Shown here: positions 16,891 through 58,855 of the stretch, one piece after another
Layout: the number at the start of each line of letters is the position of its first letter
Position numbering within the stretch: the stretch's first letter is position 1
DNA from: Rhizomicrobium sp.
GTDB lineage: Bacteria; Pseudomonadota; Alphaproteobacteria; Micropepsales; Micropepsaceae
Assembly: GCA_035512055.1 (NCBI GenBank)
Contig: DATKEP010000064.1
Span: 720 to 64,719 of the forward strand
Reading direction: 5' to 3'
Length of the DNA stretch: 64,000 nt
Notes under the pieces: model-generated
Databases searched by the model: none
What the model saw: only the letters and a program-made list of their open reading frames with translations
What the model was told of the DNA's origin: nothing
Made by a program: the position numbers and the translations under genes

Positions 16891-17391
16891 ATGGCAAAAC
16901 GAAGCAAAATCCTGAAGCCCACCGTTGGCATCATCATGGGCAGCCAGTCCGACTGGGCGACCATGCATATGGCTGCCCAAATGCTCGAGGCCCTGGGCGT
17001 GGCGCACGAGACCCGAATCGTTTCGGCCCACCGCACGCCGGACCGCATGGCGGCCTACGCCAAGGGGGCCCAGGCGCGGGGCCTCAAGGTGATCATCGCC
17101 GGCGCAGGCGGAGCCGCGCACCTGCCGGGCATGGTAGCCAGCATGACGACCTTGCCGGTGCTGGGCGTGCCCGTGGAAAGCCGGGCCCTGAAGGGACTGG
17201 ATTCGTTGCTCTCCATCGCCCAAATGCCGGGTGGCGTGCCGGTGGCGACTTTTGCAATCGGCGAGGCTGGCGCCAAGAACGCAGCCCTGCATGCTGCTGC
17301 CATCCTGGGCCTTTCCGATGCGTCCGTGAAAAAGCGCCTGGATGCCTGGCGCGCCCGCCAGACGAAATCGGTCGCCCAACGGCCGAAATGA
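16891..17391 (+). CDS. purE: N5-CAIR mutase
   Basis: [37 protein letters not shown]. Confidence 0.98.
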
Positions 17392-17401
17392 AACCGCCAA
17401 G

Positions 17402-18487
17402 ATGAAGATGTTGGACAGGCCCGTTCCGCCGGGCGGCACAATCGGCATTATTGGCGGGGGCCAGCTGGGGCGCATGCTGGCGCTGGCGGCGGCGCGGCTG
17501 GGGCTCAAGACTGCGATCTACAATGACGCGGCCGATGCGCCGGCCTTCCAGGTGACCGAGACTGCCGTCGCCGCACCTTACGAGGATTTGGACGCGCTGG
17601 CTCGCTTCGCCGACGCCTGCGATGCAGTGACATTCGAGTTTGAAAATCTTCCCGCCCATGCCATTGCCCATCTGGCAGGGCATGTGCCGGTGCGCCCGGG
17701 CGCCCATGCGCTGGCGGTGACGCAGGACCGGCTGTCGGAAAAGACATTTGTCGAAAAACTTGGGCTGAAGACCGCGCCATTTTTCGAAGTGTCGTCGGTA
17801 TCGCAGGCGAAGGAGGCGTTCGACAGGCTGGCCGGGCGGGGCATCTTGAAGACGCGGCGCTTTGGCTATGATGGCAAGGGCCAGGCAAATGTCATCAGTG
17901 GCGCCGGGGCGGTGAAGGCTTTTGAAAGCTTCAAGGGTGCACCCGCCATTCTCGAGGGCTTTGTGGATTTTTCCTATGAAGCGTCCGTCGTTGGTGCGCG
18001 GGGCGCCGATGGTGCCTTTGCGGCCTATGACCCGCCGGAGAACGAGCACGAACACCATATCCTGCGCCGCTCCACCGCCCCGTCGCGGCTAAGCGCTGCC
18101 CAGGTGGAAGAAGCCAAGACGATTGCAAAAAAGATCGCCGATGCGCTCGACTATGTCGGCGTGCTGGCGGTGGAACTGTTCGTGGGCCGCGACGGCGCTT
18201 TGCTGGTCAACGAAATCGCGCCGCGCGTTCACAATAGCGGCCATTGGACCATCGAGGCCTGCCAGTGCTCCCAGTTCGAACAGCATATCCGCGCGGTGGC
18301 GGGCTGGCCCTTGGGCGATCCCCGCCGCCATGCCGACGCCGTGATGGAAAACATCATCGGTGCCGAGGCCGATGCCTGGGAAAGCCTTGCCAAAGGCGGC
18401 GCTTTGCATCTTTACGGCAAGAAAGAGGCGCGGCCCGGCCGCAAGATGGGTCATTTGACCCGGCTAAAGCCGTTGACGAAGCCCTGA
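17402..18487 (+). CDS. purK: N5-CAIR synthetase (ATP-grasp)
   Basis: IGGGQLGRM, TFEFEN, GYDGKGQ, NEIAPRVHNSGH, RKMGH; start at ATG 17402. Confidence 0.97.
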   Translation: MKMLDRPVPPGGTIGIIGGGQLGRMLALAAARLGLKTAIYNDAADAPAFQVTETAVAAPYEDLDALARFADACDAVTFEFENLPAHAIAHLAGHVPVRPGAHALAVTQDRLSEKTFVEKLGLKTAPFFEVSSVSQAKEAFDRLAGRGILKTRRFGYDGKGQANVISGAGAVKAFESFKGAPAILEGFVDFSYEASVVGARGADGAFAAYDPPENEHEHHILRRSTAPSRLSAAQVEEAKTIAKKIADALDYVGVLAVELFVGRDGALLVNEIAPRVHNSGHWTIEACQCSQFEQHIRAVAGWPLGDPRRHADAVMENIIGAEADAWESLAKGGALHLYGKKEARPGRKMGHLTRLKPLTKP

Positions 18488-18508
18488 GCGATCCGTAGGT
18501 TCCGGCCC

Positions 18509-18592
18509 ATGACGACGACCGCGACCAAGACGGCCACCAAGACCAAGGCGCCCAAGACCATGGGCCGGGCCTGGACCGTCGCGCGCGCTTAG
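18509..18592 (+). CDS. Thr/Lys-rich attenuator leader peptide (27 aa) of asd
   Basis: MTTTATKTATKTKAPKTMGRAWTVARA: 9 Thr, 4 Lys, 2 Met; followed by antiterminator/terminator pair. Confidence 0.85.
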   Translation: MTTTATKTATKTKAPKTMGRAWTVARA

Positions 18593-18652
18593 GCAAAAGC
18601 GAAACCGACCAAGACCAGGCCCCGCCGGAACCCGGACGGGGCTTTTTCTTTT
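18567..18652 (+). terminator. Attenuator terminator and overlapping antiterminator upstream of asd
   Basis: Terminator gccccg-ccgg/ccgg-a-cggggc + tttttctttt (18619-18652); gggcctgg (18567-18574) is the exact complement of ccaggccc (18615-18622), which overlaps the terminator 5' arm. Confidence 0.85.
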
Positions 18653-18703
18653 CCGCGGCGGTGGCGAGAGCCAGAACCGCAAAAAAATAAACGGAGTTGT
18701 GCG

Positions 18704-19708
18704 ATGAGGAATAGGAACGTTGCGATAGTCGGCGCTACCGGCGCCGTAGGCCGCGAATTTGTCGGCTGTATCGAGGCGCGCGGGCTGCCGCTCAATTCGC
18801 TCAAGCTGCTGGCGTCGGCCCGGTCGGCCGGCAGGACGCAGCGCTTTCGCGGCCTGGAACTGACGGTCGAGGAATTGACCGAAGACGCTTTCAAGGACGT
18901 GGATATCGCGCTGTTTTCGGCTGGAAGCAGTATTTCGAAGGCTTTCGCGCCGGCGGCGGTAAAGGCGGGCGTTGTGGTGGTAGACAATTCATCGGCTTTC
19001 CGCGCCGATCCTGCAGTTCCCCTGGTCGTGCCTGAGATCAACGCCCGGCGCATCAAGGACCATAAGGGCATCATCGCCAATCCCAATTGCGCGGCGATCA
19101 CCACACTGGTGCCGCTCTGGCCGGTGCATCAGGTCAATCGTGTCAAGCGCCTGATCGTCTCAACCTATCAGGCAGCCTCGGGCGGCGGTGCCGCGCTTAT
19201 GGAGGAGCTTGAGCTATCCACGCGCGCTTATCTCGACGGCAAATCCTATCCGCCCAAGGTGGTGAAATACCCTTACGCCTTCAATCTCTTCAGCCACAAC
19301 ACGGCCATCGATATGAATACCGGCTATAACGACGAAGAGAGCAAGGTAATCAAGGAGACGAAGAAGATCTTCGAGGATGACTCCATCGCCGTGTCTGCCA
19401 CTTGCATCCGCGTGCCTGTGCTGCGCGCCCATTCCGTCTCGATGACGTTCGAGTGCGAGCGGCCGATCACACCGGAAGAGGTGAAGACGCTATTGACCAG
19501 GGCGCCAGGCGTGAAGCTGGTCGATGACTGGGCCGACAATTATTTTCCCATGCCCAAGGACGCCTCCGGCCAGGGCGACGTGCTGGCGGGCCGCATCCGC
19601 AAGGACCTGTCGGATGCTACAGGCAAGTCGATCAGCATGTTCGTGGCGGCGGATCAGCTTTTGAAGGGTGCGGCGCTAAATGCTGTGCAGATCGCTGAGC
19701 TCTTATAG
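18704..19708 (+). CDS. asd: Aspartate-semialdehyde dehydrogenase
   Basis: VGATGAVG, VDNSSAFR, IIANPNC, STYQAASG, TCIRVPV, DQLLKGAALNAVQIAE. Confidence 0.96.
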   Translation: MRNRNVAIVGATGAVGREFVGCIEARGLPLNSLKLLASARSAGRTQRFRGLELTVEELTEDAFKDVDIALFSAGSSISKAFAPAAVKAGVVVVDNSSAFRADPAVPLVVPEINARRIKDHKGIIANPNCAAITTLVPLWPVHQVNRVKRLIVSTYQAASGGGAALMEELELSTRAYLDGKSYPPKVVKYPYAFNLFSHNTAIDMNTGYNDEESKVIKETKKIFEDDSIAVSATCIRVPVLRAHSVSMTFECERPITPEEVKTLLTRAPGVKLVDDWADNYFPMPKDASGQGDVLAGRIRKDLSDATGKSISMFVAADQLLKGAALNAVQIAELL

Positions 19709-21631: not shown

Positions 21632-22678
21632 TCAGGTGCAATCGGCGCAGACCGCGACTTCGACCGTGACATGGGACAGGTCCGGATATCGGCGGCGCAG
21701 AGTCGCCTTGATCGCTTCGGCACTGACGGCGTCAGGAGAAACCAGCGACACGATCAGCCCGCGATGGCCAGGCCCCAAGCGCCAAAGATGGAGGTCGGGA
21801 ATGCGCGCCTTGAGCTCGCTCTGCAGGAAATTGCGGATTTCTTCCGACATGCCGGGATCGGCATCGGCGTCCAGCAGCACCAAGCCACTGTCGCGGATCA
21901 GGCCGTATGACCAGGAGGCGATCACAAAAGCGCCGACCAATCCGCTGACGGGATCCAGAATCCCCAGCCCGAAATAATAACCGCAAGCCAGCGCCACGAT
22001 GGCCAGTACGCTGGTGGCGGCATCAGCCAGCACATGCACGTATGCGGCGCGCATATTGTTGTCATGGCCATGCGCGTGCGCGTGGTCATGACCATGGCCG
22101 TGCGAATGGTCATCCTTCAGGATCAGGGCGCTGATCAGATTCACGGCCAGCCCGATGCAGGCGATCAATAGCGCGTCGCCATAGGCCACCGCGACCGGAC
22201 TGATGATGCGCTGAATCGATTCAACCGCAACGGCAAGGGCGGTCACGCCCAGAAGGATTGCGCTGGAAAAAGCCGCCAGATCGCCAAACTTTCCCGAGCC
22301 AAAGCTGAAACGCCCGCTGCCCGCATGGCGCCGCGCCAGCCAGTAGGCGCCCGCCGCCAGCCCCAGTGCCCCCACATGGGTCGCCATGTGCGCGCCGTCG
22401 GCGAGAAGCGCCATGGAGTGATAGGCAAGACCGCAGACGATCTCCACGCACATGAAGATGGCGGTAACGATCGCCGCCCATTTCGCACGGGACTCCGCCC
22501 GGGAATGACCCTGGCCCAGGAACACGTGATCGCGGGTCCAGATGCCGTGATCGTGCGGCTTTTCGGCGGCACGGCTATGATCGTGATCATGATCATGGTG
22601 GTGGTCATGGTCATGGTCGTGGTCATGGGAATGACCATGCGAATGATTGTGACCGTCCAGGGTGTGGTCGTGCGCCAT
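21632..22678 (-). CDS. dmeF: CDF family Co/Ni efflux transporter, DmeF-like
   Basis: SMALLADGAHMATH, AAYVHVLADAATS, DLHLWRLGPGH; His-rich N-terminus and loop. Confidence 0.88.
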   Translation of the reverse strand: MAHDHTLDGHNHSHGHSHDHDHDHDHHHDHDHDHSRAAEKPHDHGIWTRDHVFLGQGHSRAESRAKWAAIVTAIFMCVEIVCGLAYHSMALLADGAHMATHVGALGLAAGAYWLARRHAGSGRFSFGSGKFGDLAAFSSAILLGVTALAVAVESIQRIISPVAVAYGDALLIACIGLAVNLISALILKDDHSHGHGHDHAHAHGHDNNMRAAYVHVLADAATSVLAIVALACGYYFGLGILDPVSGLVGAFVIASWSYGLIRDSGLVLLDADADPGMSEEIRNFLQSELKARIPDLHLWRLGPGHRGLIVSLVSPDAVSAEAIKATLRRRYPDLSHVTVEVAVCADCT

Positions 22679-22871
22679 GCGGATCAGTCTAGCGCGCTAC
22701 CGCTGTAAAATCAGCTAGGCGAATGCGCCCAAAAGCGGCAGAAGGGCCCCTGCGGCAACAAGTGCGCCGAGCAGCAAAAGCCGGGGATTTCGAATCGGGC
22801 GAAGCGACATGACCCTGACATAGTCCGATCCGGCGTCATTGCAACCTTACTGGCGTCGCGGATATGCGTGT

Positions 22872-56752: not shown

Positions 56753-58855
56753 TCAGATCTGGCCCAAGGTGCGCAAGCGCACCGAGGCATGGATTTCATT
56801 CTGGCTCATCACCACCGTCTGGGGCCGGAAGCGCTCGATGATGGAACGAACGAAGGGACGAATTTGGGGAGACGTCAGCAGGATCGGGACTTCGTTCTTG
56901 GCGCCCGCCTCGTCAAAGGATTCGCGCACCGCCTGGATGAATTGCTGCAGCCGCGACGGCGCCATAGCGAGCTGGCGCTCTTCGCCTTGGCCGACGATGG
57001 ATTCGGCAAAGGCCTGTTCCCAATTGGGCGACAGCGCCAGCAGCGGCAGGTAGCCGGACGGCGACAGGTTGGCGTTGCAAAGCTGGCGGGCGAGGCGCGC
57101 GCGCACGTGCTCGGTGATGTAAAGCGCGTTTTTGGTGTGGCCGACCGCTTCGGCAACGCCTTCCAGGATGGCAGGCAGGTCGCGGATGGAGACCCGCTCG
57201 CTGAGCAGCGTCTGCAGCACGCGCTGCACGCCGGTGACCGAAATCTGAGAGGGGATGAGTTCTTCCACCAGCTTCTTGTTCTCCGGCGGCAGGTCGTCCA
57301 GCAGTTTCTTGGTCTCGGCATAGGACAGAAGCTCGGCCATATGGCTTTTGAGCACTTCGGTCAGATGCGTGGTGAGCACGGTGCCGGGATCTACCACGGT
57401 GAAGCCGCGGAAGGAGGCCTCTTCCTTCAGGCTGCCGGTGACCCAGGTGGCAGGCAGGCCGAAGGCCGGTTCGGTGGTGTGCGTACCGGGCAGATCGATG
57501 GGCAGCCCTTTGGGGTCCATGATCAGGAAGCTGCCGGGGAAAAGCTCGCCCTTGCCGGAATCGAATTCCTTGATGCGGATGCGGTACTCGTTGGCGCCCA
57601 GCTGCATATTGTCGAGGATGCGCACCGCCGGCATGACAAAGCCCATCTCCTGTGCCAGTTGGCGGCGCAGTGCCTTGATCTGGTCGGTGATGCGGTGGCC
57701 TTGCACATCGTTGATCAGGGGAAGCAGGCCATATCCCAATTCGATGCGCAATTGGTCCAGTGCCAATGCCGTCGAGATCGGCTCCTCCTTGGGCGGACCG
57801 GCGGCTTGCGCAGACTCGGCGGCAGCCTGCTGGCTGCGGGCGTTCTTGCGCTTGTGGGCATACCAGGCCAGCGTGCCTGTGCCGCCGGAGAGCAACCCAA
57901 ACACCAGTGTCGGCATGCCGGGCAGGACCGCGACAATGCCCATCACCGCGGCGGCCATGCCCAGCGCCTGGGGATAGAAGGACAATTGGCCCATCAGCGC
58001 CTTGTCGGTTGCGCCTTCGACGCCGGCCTTCGACACCATCAAGCCTGCGGCAGTCGAGACAATCAGCGCCGGCATCTGCGATACCAGGCCGTCGCCGACC
58101 GTCAGCAGGGTGAAGGTCTGGGACGCGTCGGCGAAGCTCATGCCCTTCTGGGCCACGGCAATGATGATGCCACCGACGATATTGATGCCCACGATCATCA
58201 GGCCGGCAATGGCATCGCCGCGCACGAATTTGCTGGCGCCGTCCATGGCGCCGAAGAAATTGGATTCCGCCTCGATATTCTTGCGCCGAGCCTTGGCCTC
58301 TTTCTCGTCAATCAGGCCGGCAGAGAGGTCGGCATCGATCGCCATCTGCTTGCCGGGCATGGCGTCCAGGCTGAAGCGTGCCGCAACTTCGGCGATGCGG
58401 CCCGAACCCTTGGTGATGACGACGAAGTTCACGATGATCAGGATGGCGAAAACGATCAACCCGATCACGAAGTTGCCTTGCATGATCAGCTTGCCGAAGG
58501 CCTGGATGACATAGCCGGAGGCGGCAGTGCCCTCATTGCCATGGCCCAGGATCAGCCGGGTCGACGCCAGGTTCAGCGCCAGCCGCATCATGGTGGTGAT
58601 GAGCAGGATGGTGGGGAAGGACGAGAATTCCAGCGGCTTCCTGATGAACACGGCCGTCATCAGGATCAAGATCGAGAAGCTGAGCGAAAAGGCCAGGCTG
58701 ACATCCAGCATCCATGTCGGCAGCGGCAGGATCAGCACCACCAGGATGGCCATGATGCCGATCGCAAGCCCGAGGTCGGACTTGCGGATGAACTCCATGA
58801 CCTTGGCGGGCGACAGATCGAAGCCCGATGTCGCTGTGGTGCTGATGTCAGACAT
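56753..58855 (-). CDS. flhA: Flagellar export protein FlhA
   Basis: FSSFPTILL, NLASTRLIL, KGSGRIAEVAARFSLDAMPGKQMAIDADL, GAMDGASKFVRGDA. Confidence 0.98.
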   Translation of the reverse strand: MSDISTTATSGFDLSPAKVMEFIRKSDLGLAIGIMAILVVLILPLPTWMLDVSLAFSLSFSILILMTAVFIRKPLEFSSFPTILLITTMMRLALNLASTRLILGHGNEGTAASGYVIQAFGKLIMQGNFVIGLIVFAILIIVNFVVITKGSGRIAEVAARFSLDAMPGKQMAIDADLSAGLIDEKEAKARRKNIEAESNFFGAMDGASKFVRGDAIAGLMIVGINIVGGIIIAVAQKGMSFADASQTFTLLTVGDGLVSQMPALIVSTAAGLMVSKAGVEGATDKALMGQLSFYPQALGMAAAVMGIVAVLPGMPTLVFGLLSGGTGTLAWYAHKRKNARSQQAAAESAQAAGPPKEEPISTALALDQLRIELGYGLLPLINDVQGHRITDQIKALRRQLAQEMGFVMPAVRILDNMQLGANEYRIRIKEFDSGKGELFPGSFLIMDPKGLPIDLPGTHTTEPAFGLPATWVTGSLKEEASFRGFTVVDPGTVLTTHLTEVLKSHMAELLSYAETKKLLDDLPPENKKLVEELIPSQISVTGVQRVLQTLLSERVSIRDLPAILEGVAEAVGHTKNALYITEHVRARLARQLCNANLSPSGYLPLLALSPNWEQAFAESIVGQGEERQLAMAPSRLQQFIQAVRESFDEAGAKNEVPILLTSPQIRPFVRSIIERFRPQTVVMSQNEIHASVRLRTLGQI

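Follow-up and report, generated by a model that had tools for sequence, protein, structure and literature searches.

A probable threonine- and lysine-codon transcription attenuator upstream of asd in Rhizomicrobium and its relatives

Aspartate-semialdehyde dehydrogenase (Asd) catalyses the shared second step in the synthesis of lysine (Lys), diaminopimelate, threonine (Thr), methionine (Met) and isoleucine (Ile). To our knowledge, the regulation of its gene, asd, is poorly known outside enterobacteria, and E. coli asd was reportedly described as having no attenuator in the 1982 paper on its sequence. Among catalogued elements, the one nearest in design to the locus described here is thrL of Enterobacteria (RF00506, Thr_leader), which senses Thr and Ile and controls thrABC. 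Here we examine a 64-kb stretch of DNA from Rhizomicrobium sp. (64,000 nucleotides of contig DATKEP010000064.1; hereafter the window), in which a leader element lies directly 5' of asd, at positions 18,509 to 18,652. With thrL it shares a short, Thr-codon-rich leader open reading frame (ORF), helices 1:2, 2:3 and 3:4 that exclude one another, an intrinsic terminator placed before a gene of the aspartate family and, as we read it, the sensing of two amino acids. It differs in its control codons (Thr and Lys) and its target (asd), and in a leader that is probably leaderless where the thrL ORF is Shine-Dalgarno-led. Sequence and structure bear no similarity to RF00506: a search of Rfam 15 gave no match at gathering score in the whole window and nothing relevant, RF00506 included, at E ≤ 10 in 18300-18900. 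We put at roughly 85% the probability that the element is a ribosome-mediated leader-peptide transcription attenuator through which asd is set by the charging of tRNA-Thr and tRNA-Lys. Given its conservation in 57 related sequences, it is almost certainly a real, uncatalogued attenuator of a well-known kind.

Other described leaders resemble this design in part. In Thermus thermophilus, the leader of the lysine biosynthesis cluster uses Lys codons as control codons, and in Actinobacteria the attenuators of ilvB, leuA, trp and cys have leaderless leader peptides; both groups belong to other phyla and differ from the window element in target genes and sequences. Within Alphaproteobacteria, the trpL attenuator of Sinorhizobium meliloti is a leader-peptide transcription attenuator made as a leaderless small mRNA whose 5' end is the AUG of its leader peptide frame (PMC10117765), a mode of initiation that we also predict for the window element; trpL, however, has Trp codons and controls trpE(G), and trans functions have been shown for its RNA (rnTrpL) and peptide.

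S. meliloti also carries a small ORF (sORF), SEP5, with six Thr and three Lys codons in the 5' untranslated region of an 'aspartate dehydrogenase' gene, which was suggested as a possible leader peptide, detected as translated by Ribo-seq and Western blot, and reported as conserved in Sinorhizobium only (Hadjeras et al. 2023, PMC10117765). We found the gene downstream of SEP5 to be asd (its product has Semialdhyde_dh domains and is 42% identical to the window Asd), so that SEP5, like the window leader, is an alphaproteobacterial small ORF with a Thr/Lys cluster (..ARKTTAKTTTKTV) directly 5' of asd. ORFs of the SEP5 type, however, have 38-43 codons, with 38-39 in the SEP5 region itself, are Shine-Dalgarno-led and bear the cluster at the C-terminus, ending in ..AKTTTKTV and the stop codon; their region has no T-run terminator and carries a block, CUCUCCCCGG, whose sequence complements the ribosome-binding site (RBS) of asd, GGAGAGA, which suggests translational control. 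The window element is therefore not of the SEP5 type, since length, start type and downstream structure all differ. Apart from the SEP5 suggestion, full-text literature searches returned no description of an asd attenuator. A preliminary description of the window, made from its letters alone, had regarded no such element as described for alphaproteobacterial asd; this holds for the structure found here, a form undescribed in the searchable literature, but overlooked the structurally different SEP5 proposal of 2023 (PMC10117765).

The leader and the gene under its predicted control are laid out as follows, in window coordinates:

18509-18592, + strand: leader ORF of 27 codons plus TAG, encoding MTTTATKTATKTKAPKTMGRAWTVARA (ATG at 18509, TAG at 18590-92)
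18512-18559, + strand: run of control codons, with 8 of the 9 leader Thr codons (ACG/ACC) and all 4 Lys codons (AAG)
18543-18565, + strand: region 1, the 5' strand of an anti-antiterminator, from the fold of the window leader and the 1:2 pairing of the family
18563-18574, + strand: region 2, GGC.GGGCCUGG, common to the 1:2 and 2:3 helices and coding for G-R-A-W
18615-18626, + strand: region 3, CCAGGCCC.GCC, the 3' strand of the antiterminator, overlapping the 5' arm of the terminator (folding, swap test and column counts)
18619-18652, + strand: intrinsic terminator, regions 3:4, with its hairpin at 18619-18642 and its T-tract at 18643-18652
18704-19708, + strand: asd, of the asd_B type, 334 amino acids (aa) (NF011456, 416 bits; TIGR01296, 394 bits)

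The translated leader contains Thr nine times, Lys four times and one internal Met, the ninth Thr codon (18575-18577) lying 3' of region 2; at least 13 Thr plus Lys in 27 residues would be expected with P = 7e-7 under the composition of the neighbouring genes. The terminator stem runs from G18619 to C18642 as six base pairs, a bulged A and four base pairs, followed by TTTTTCTTTT at 18643-18652. It folds at -24.5 kcal/mol (z = -4.2), and its T-tract ends 51 nt before the asd ATG (18704), ahead of an RBS, GGAG, at 18693-96. A simple terminator scanner overlooked this bulged hairpin, which was recovered with RNAfold. The antiterminator has an 8-bp core (gggcctgg 18567-18574 with ccaggccc 18615-18622) and, when extended to 18563-18626 (18563-74 with 18615-26), reaches -34.9 kcal/mol (z = -2.6). 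Because antiterminator and terminator both use 18619-18626, the two structures are mutually exclusive. The preliminary description had claimed the 27-codon leader with these residue counts, the 8-bp antiterminator exclusive of the terminator, and the GC-rich terminator with its U-tract 51 bp before asd; each was found where it had been placed, sequence and folding agreeing. In the window, the 1:2 helix pairs CCA.GGC (18543-49) with GCCUGG (18569-74), placing its 5' strand within the control codons. A small hairpin nested in it (18550-54 with 18561-65, spanning 18550-65) is confined to long leader variants of 25-29 codons.

In the mechanism that we propose, transcription would begin on the leader AUG or a few nucleotides away from it, driven by a promoter that overlaps the end of purK, and a ribosome would translate the 27-codon leader. 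With Thr-tRNA and Lys-tRNA plentiful, the ribosome would pass region 1 and move over region 2 to reach the stop codon; region 2 would be covered, or re-paired with region 1 behind the ribosome, and region 3 would pair with region 4, the GC hairpin and U-tract terminating transcription about 50 nt before asd. With either Thr or Lys in short supply, the ribosome would instead stall at Thr/Lys codons on or next to region 1. The free region 2 would then pair with region 3, and this antiterminator, by precluding the terminator, would allow the polymerase to enter asd.

Conservation was assessed with an Asd protein scan (one genome per species), which returned 80 loci; the comparison set comprised the window and 56 proteobacterial loci with Asd at least 67% identical, 57 distinct sequences in all. 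These 56 loci come from metagenome-assembled genomes (MAGs) of Micropepsales, three species of Asticcacaulis, R. electricum and six MAGs that carry the label Gammaproteobacteria, and the nearest relatives of the window by Asd are Rhizomicrobium/Micropepsales MAGs (identity up to 92%). Alignment of the asd upstream regions for Thr/Lys codons, a check proposed in the preliminary description, found the leader conserved: a Thr/Lys-rich ORF of 21-29 codons and a GGGGC-type hairpin lie directly 5' of asd in 56/56 proteobacterial relatives, and the module was seen in 0/24 loci of other phyla. A terminator hairpin follows the leader in all 57 sequences (-12 to -23.5 kcal/mol), with an uninterrupted T-run in 56 of them; the sole exception, L019, has GTTATTATTTTT instead. 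The distance from the first base of the leader stop to the 5' arm of the terminator is 26-31 nt in 56/57 (median 28), although the intervening sequence is variable. A covariance model (model R1) built from the 57 distinct sequences had one true match in the 64-kb window (18509-18651, 91.9 bits) and exactly one in each of the loci L001-L056 (58-129 bits), always 5' of asd and in the same orientation, and no match in L057-L082. The module also follows asd rather than its upstream neighbour. In the window, purE and purK are the 5' neighbours of the leader and the asd_B-type asd its 3' neighbour. A gene unrelated to purK lies upstream in Asticcacaulis, the gammaproteobacterial MAGs, L045, L055 and L056, yet promoter, leader and terminator are kept before asd, and the module likewise stays with asd at loci having an extra small gene upstream.

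Leader composition is skewed in the same way across the family. Thr makes up 26% and Lys 13% of 1360 leader residues, versus 4.5% and 5.8% in the purE/purK/asd background; counted back from the stop, nearly every residue between -11 and -20 is T or K, and the codons used are chiefly ACC, ACG and AAG. Asn, Gln and His are infrequent, though equally fit for A/C-rich unstructured RNA. The C-terminus (..P-x-G-A-G-x-A-R-A before the stop) is conserved because it encodes RNA elements, and conservation of the peptide is restricted to composition and to such RNA-constrained parts. Sensing of Met, which the preliminary description had allowed for, was discarded: the internal Met position is occupied by I/L/M/F/K across the aligned relatives, and the Met frequently found at codon 3 lies too far upstream of region 1.

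The alternative helices have co-varied. In the family, region 1 corresponds to the last Thr-Lys-Pro codons, ACC AAG CCC (window counterpart CCAAGGC, 18543-49), region 2 to GGGGCUGGG, read as G-A-G codons (window counterpart 18563-74), region 3 to CCCAAGCCCC, overlapping the terminator 5' arm (window counterpart 18615-26), and region 4 to CGGGGC; region 1 thus resembles region 3 and region 2 resembles region 4, which is the logic expected of a classical attenuator. Native duplexes of regions 2 and 3 average -19.9 kcal/mol versus -17.8 kcal/mol after partners are swapped between sequences (z = -7.4, 0/5000 permutations), and those of regions 1 and 2 average -12.5 versus -11.1 kcal/mol (z = -6.2, 0/5000 permutations). 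In those columns of the raw alignment that are in register, 85% of cells of the 2:3 helix are paired, with 10 double-change cells (0/500 shuffles). For the 1:2 columns (ACC-AAG-CCC with GGGGCU), 85% are paired and 4/5 pairs have compensatory changes (0/500 shuffles). The lower stem of 3:4 is 96% paired and, being invariant, gives no co-variation. Compensation in 2:3 is illustrated by GGGCCUGG/CCAGGCCC in the window, GGGGCU-GGG/CCCAAGCCCC in most loci and GGGCUUCGG/CCGAAGCCC in L044, L046 and L049. With the terminator 3' arm left out, the antiterminator is the minimum-free-energy structure in most of the 57 sequences (46/57 by the criterion of the footprint analysis).

For that analysis, an assumed ribosome footprint of -15/+14 nt was masked and the leader refolded in an equilibrium model. 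The free window RNA adopts the 1:2 helix and the terminator (-55.4 kcal/mol, versus -51.4 kcal/mol for the forced antiterminator). Placing the A-site on either Lys11 or Lys13 makes the antiterminator displace the terminator, and placing it on Lys7, Lys16 or the stop codon leaves the terminator in place. Across the family, 45/57 sequences flip to the antiterminator at some stall site at equilibrium, and the flip-inducing sites are Thr or Lys codons in 69% of cases versus 32% elsewhere. When the terminator 3' arm was withheld, mimicking co-transcriptional folding, the 2:3 helix was permitted for every stall upstream of region 2 in 57/57. We regard these simulations as illustrating the mechanism, not as proof of it.

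The sequence just upstream points to a promoter serving the leader itself:

17342-18487, + strand: purK, the gene upstream of the leader (stop codon 18485-87)
18473-18478, + strand: -35 hexamer TTGACG, within the last purK codons (read from the sequence and matched in the family)
18496-18501, + strand: predicted -10 hexamer TAGGTT, 17 nt past the -35 hexamer and ending 7 nt before the leader ATG

A promoter of this TTGACG-N17-TAGGTT type is present in 48/57 loci compared with 8/5000 random positions, and three further loci have near-matches. In the 48, 7-10 nt separate the -10 box from the ATG, and the spacer measures 17 nt in 45. Transcription is predicted to start at ~18508-18509, and no Shine-Dalgarno sequence precedes the leader ATG; together, the short distance from the -10 box and the missing Shine-Dalgarno sequence make it probable that the mRNA is leaderless. 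The purK stop falls between the -35 and -10 boxes, so that transcripts reading through from purEK would meet the same terminator. A helix of 18496-18511 with 18559-18574, predicted with upstream DNA included, was not counted among the structures of the transcript made from the leader promoter, since the start predicted there lies downstream of the helix's 5' strand; RNA reading through from purEK could still adopt it.

The preliminary description had proposed a multivalent Thr+Lys attenuator of asd. Conservation, in-frame enrichment, spacing, co-varying helices and asd linkage support that proposal, and the design is fuller than it had envisaged: region 1 adds an anti-antiterminator (1:2), and the promoter makes a leaderless start probable. 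Several observations weigh against the proposal. Six loci (L006, L012, L017, L018, L028 and L042) lack the canonical promoter, and in them the ATG of the leader directly adjoins or overlaps the stop codon of a frame upstream. The window sequence itself was met in soil metagenomes only, and the RNA data searched, Logan contigs of metatranscriptomes, are too sparse for 5' or 3' ends. One metatranscriptome contig, from an Asticcacaulis relative, runs through leader and asd uninterrupted (L039 2325-3498), but starts ~22 nt upstream of the leader ATG and may represent DNA or read-through, and a second metatranscriptome run gave just a 213-nt piece inside asd. RNAalifold on raw MAFFT alignments returned no or spurious consensus helices, as bulges shift the alignment register, and was replaced by per-sequence folding, the partner-swap test and column counts on in-register pairs. 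In the footprint simulations, 12/57 sequences did not flip to the antiterminator at any stall site at equilibrium. A ribosome at the stop codon, with its -15/+14 footprint, does not directly mask region 2, so that termination under plenty would need timing and steric effects, or else 1:2 re-pairing. Lastly, one Lys codon per leader falls within region 1, where CCAAGCCC mimics region 3, and part of the Lys enrichment is for that reason structural.

Five of the six promoterless loci have extra sequence between purK and the leader, the upstream sequence of L018 being too short to tell. An intervening ORF of 140-190 aa occupies this space in L006 (1793-2281), L012 (1797-2357) and L028 (1253-1669); the two tested, those of L012 and L028, had no Pfam match. 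L017 retains only a 3'-end remnant of a small upstream ORF, and L042 has about 275 nt of extra sequence. The arrangement suggests that leaders in promoterless loci are served by translational coupling or by read-through transcription.

The placement of a Lys codon in region 1 bears on the possibility that the element senses Thr only, its Lys codons serving the region-1/region-3 sequence (CCAAGCCC) and keeping the 5' end A/C-rich and unstructured. Thr is indeed twice as common as Lys in the leaders, and those of Asticcacaulis and the gammaproteobacterial MAGs have many Thr codons and just 1-3 Lys. Against this, at positions -13 to -20, which lie outside region 1, 21-37% of the residues are Lys, compared with the 5.8% background; the other A/C-rich codons (Asn, Gln, His), which would serve the structure as well, are rare; and the independent Rhizobiales leaders likewise mix Thr and Lys (..AKTTTKTV). 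We therefore consider a Thr-only sensor unlikely.

A second alternative takes one of its arguments from a sequence block that the switch does not explain:

18580-18588, + strand: near-invariant CGCGCGCGC, 2-5 nt past region 2 and just before the leader stop (alignment)

This block is read in two frames, as ..ARA before the stop in most leaders and as ..RAR or ..RARR in the others, which implies constraint, and likely a role, at the nucleic-acid level. Its partners within the antiterminator loop vary on per-sequence folding. It follows the 1:2 hairpin at a distance of about 10 nt, a position that fits a possible hairpin-stabilised RNA polymerase pause site. Together with the element's own promoter and terminator, the block could be taken to mean that the ~140-nt terminated transcript is mainly a trans-acting or dual-function RNA, or that its peptide is functional, cis control of asd being secondary; an alphaproteobacterial precedent exists in rnTrpL/peTrpL of S. 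meliloti (PMC6614838, PMC7298713). We think this very improbable, since the element is always directly 5' of asd, in the same orientation and in one copy per locus, and the peptide shows only the restricted conservation described above; a trans function would in any case be compatible with the cis mechanism. Finally, hairpin and T-tract could be read as nothing more than the end of the purEK operon, with the short ORF as a frame open by chance. This reading can appeal to this being the first terminator downstream of purK (stop 18487) and to ~25-codon open frames being common in GC-rich DNA, but is effectively refuted, as ORF, terminator and promoter accompany asd without purK upstream, and the 57 sequences conserve the in-frame Thr/Lys codons, the fixed distance from stop to terminator and the alternative helices that co-vary.

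Attenuation of asd through a Thr/Lys leader, as we read the window element, has a counterpart of different build in Rhizobiales. SEP5-type sORFs precede asd in Martelella and Mesorhizobium as well, with a short form, MRTVIKTKTAI, in Hoeflea; they were not found upstream of asd in Georhizobium and Rhizobium albus. The SEP5-type loci are L081 (2553-2787), L082, L083, L084 and L085, and the conserved CUCUCCCCGG block follows the sORF. Model R1 had no match in L081 or L082, the two of these loci that it was run on. A homology search with S. meliloti asd reached relatives at least 86% identical only, Caulobacter, Rhodobacter, Sphingomonas and others falling outside it. Since Thr/Lys sORFs occur in both lineages, Alphaproteobacteria would have Thr/Lys leader control of asd in two or more forms that are structurally unrelated. 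Asd and leader of the window type are common to Asticcacaulis (81-83% identical) and the gammaproteobacterial MAGs (68-71%), namely at L037, L039, L040 and L047-L054. That these groups share an asd lineage with only 42% identity to the asd usual in Rhizobiales suggests joint horizontal transfer of asd with its attenuator.

A wider view, which we hold only tentatively and think rather less probable than its negation, is that Thr/Lys leader control of asd is old, widespread and uncatalogued in Alphaproteobacteria and some Gammaproteobacteria, the sensor, a run of Thr/Lys codons, having been kept while the expression platform was exchanged. The platforms may be a terminator with a leaderless start (Micropepsales, Asticcacaulis and gammaproteobacterial MAGs) versus RBS sequestration with a Shine-Dalgarno-led ORF (Rhizobiales), and the same view would have CGCGCGCGC act as a pause site that synchronises the leaderless-initiating ribosome with the polymerase.

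If it works as proposed, the element would be the transcriptional counterpart of the concerted Lys+Thr feedback on aspartokinase, and the mechanism would apply across a whole order of Alphaproteobacteria from soil and fresh water, most of them uncultured, as well as the cultivable Asticcacaulis. It would extend classical attenuation in an expected direction, with no new principle, and add a further, predicted example of a leaderless leader peptide. The 57-sequence alignment can serve as the seed of a new RNA family and is useful in annotation, and the element helps towards an understanding of how the aspartate pathway is regulated in an order that has been little studied. The suggested role of SEP5 also becomes more credible, and its range is extended to other Rhizobiales genera.

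Two further matches of the covariance model in the window, at 22586-22626 (- strand) and 58164-58308 (+ strand), lie within coding sequence and were rejected as false positives. The source of the former is a coding stretch of His/Asp repeats (HDHDHDH...) at 22540-22680 (- strand), which probably forms the N-terminus of a protein that transports or binds metal.

One more feature separates the terminator from the start of asd:

18654-18680, + strand: variable palindromic insert CCGCGGCG...CGCCGC, between the terminator and the asd RBS

Inserts of this kind, variable in sequence, also occur in L006, L013, L019, L025, L030, L031, L034 and L035. The gap is 20-24 nt where the insert is absent, and in a third group of genomes the insert is far longer (100-170 nt); its absence from the relatives with the 20-24 nt gap places the insert probably outside the switch. 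In L019, L025, L030 and L034, a duplication of the first ~40 nt of asd precedes the long insert, which in this respect resembles a small palindromic mobile element whose target duplication is unusually long. Within the 64-kb window, the palindromic insert is present in a single copy.

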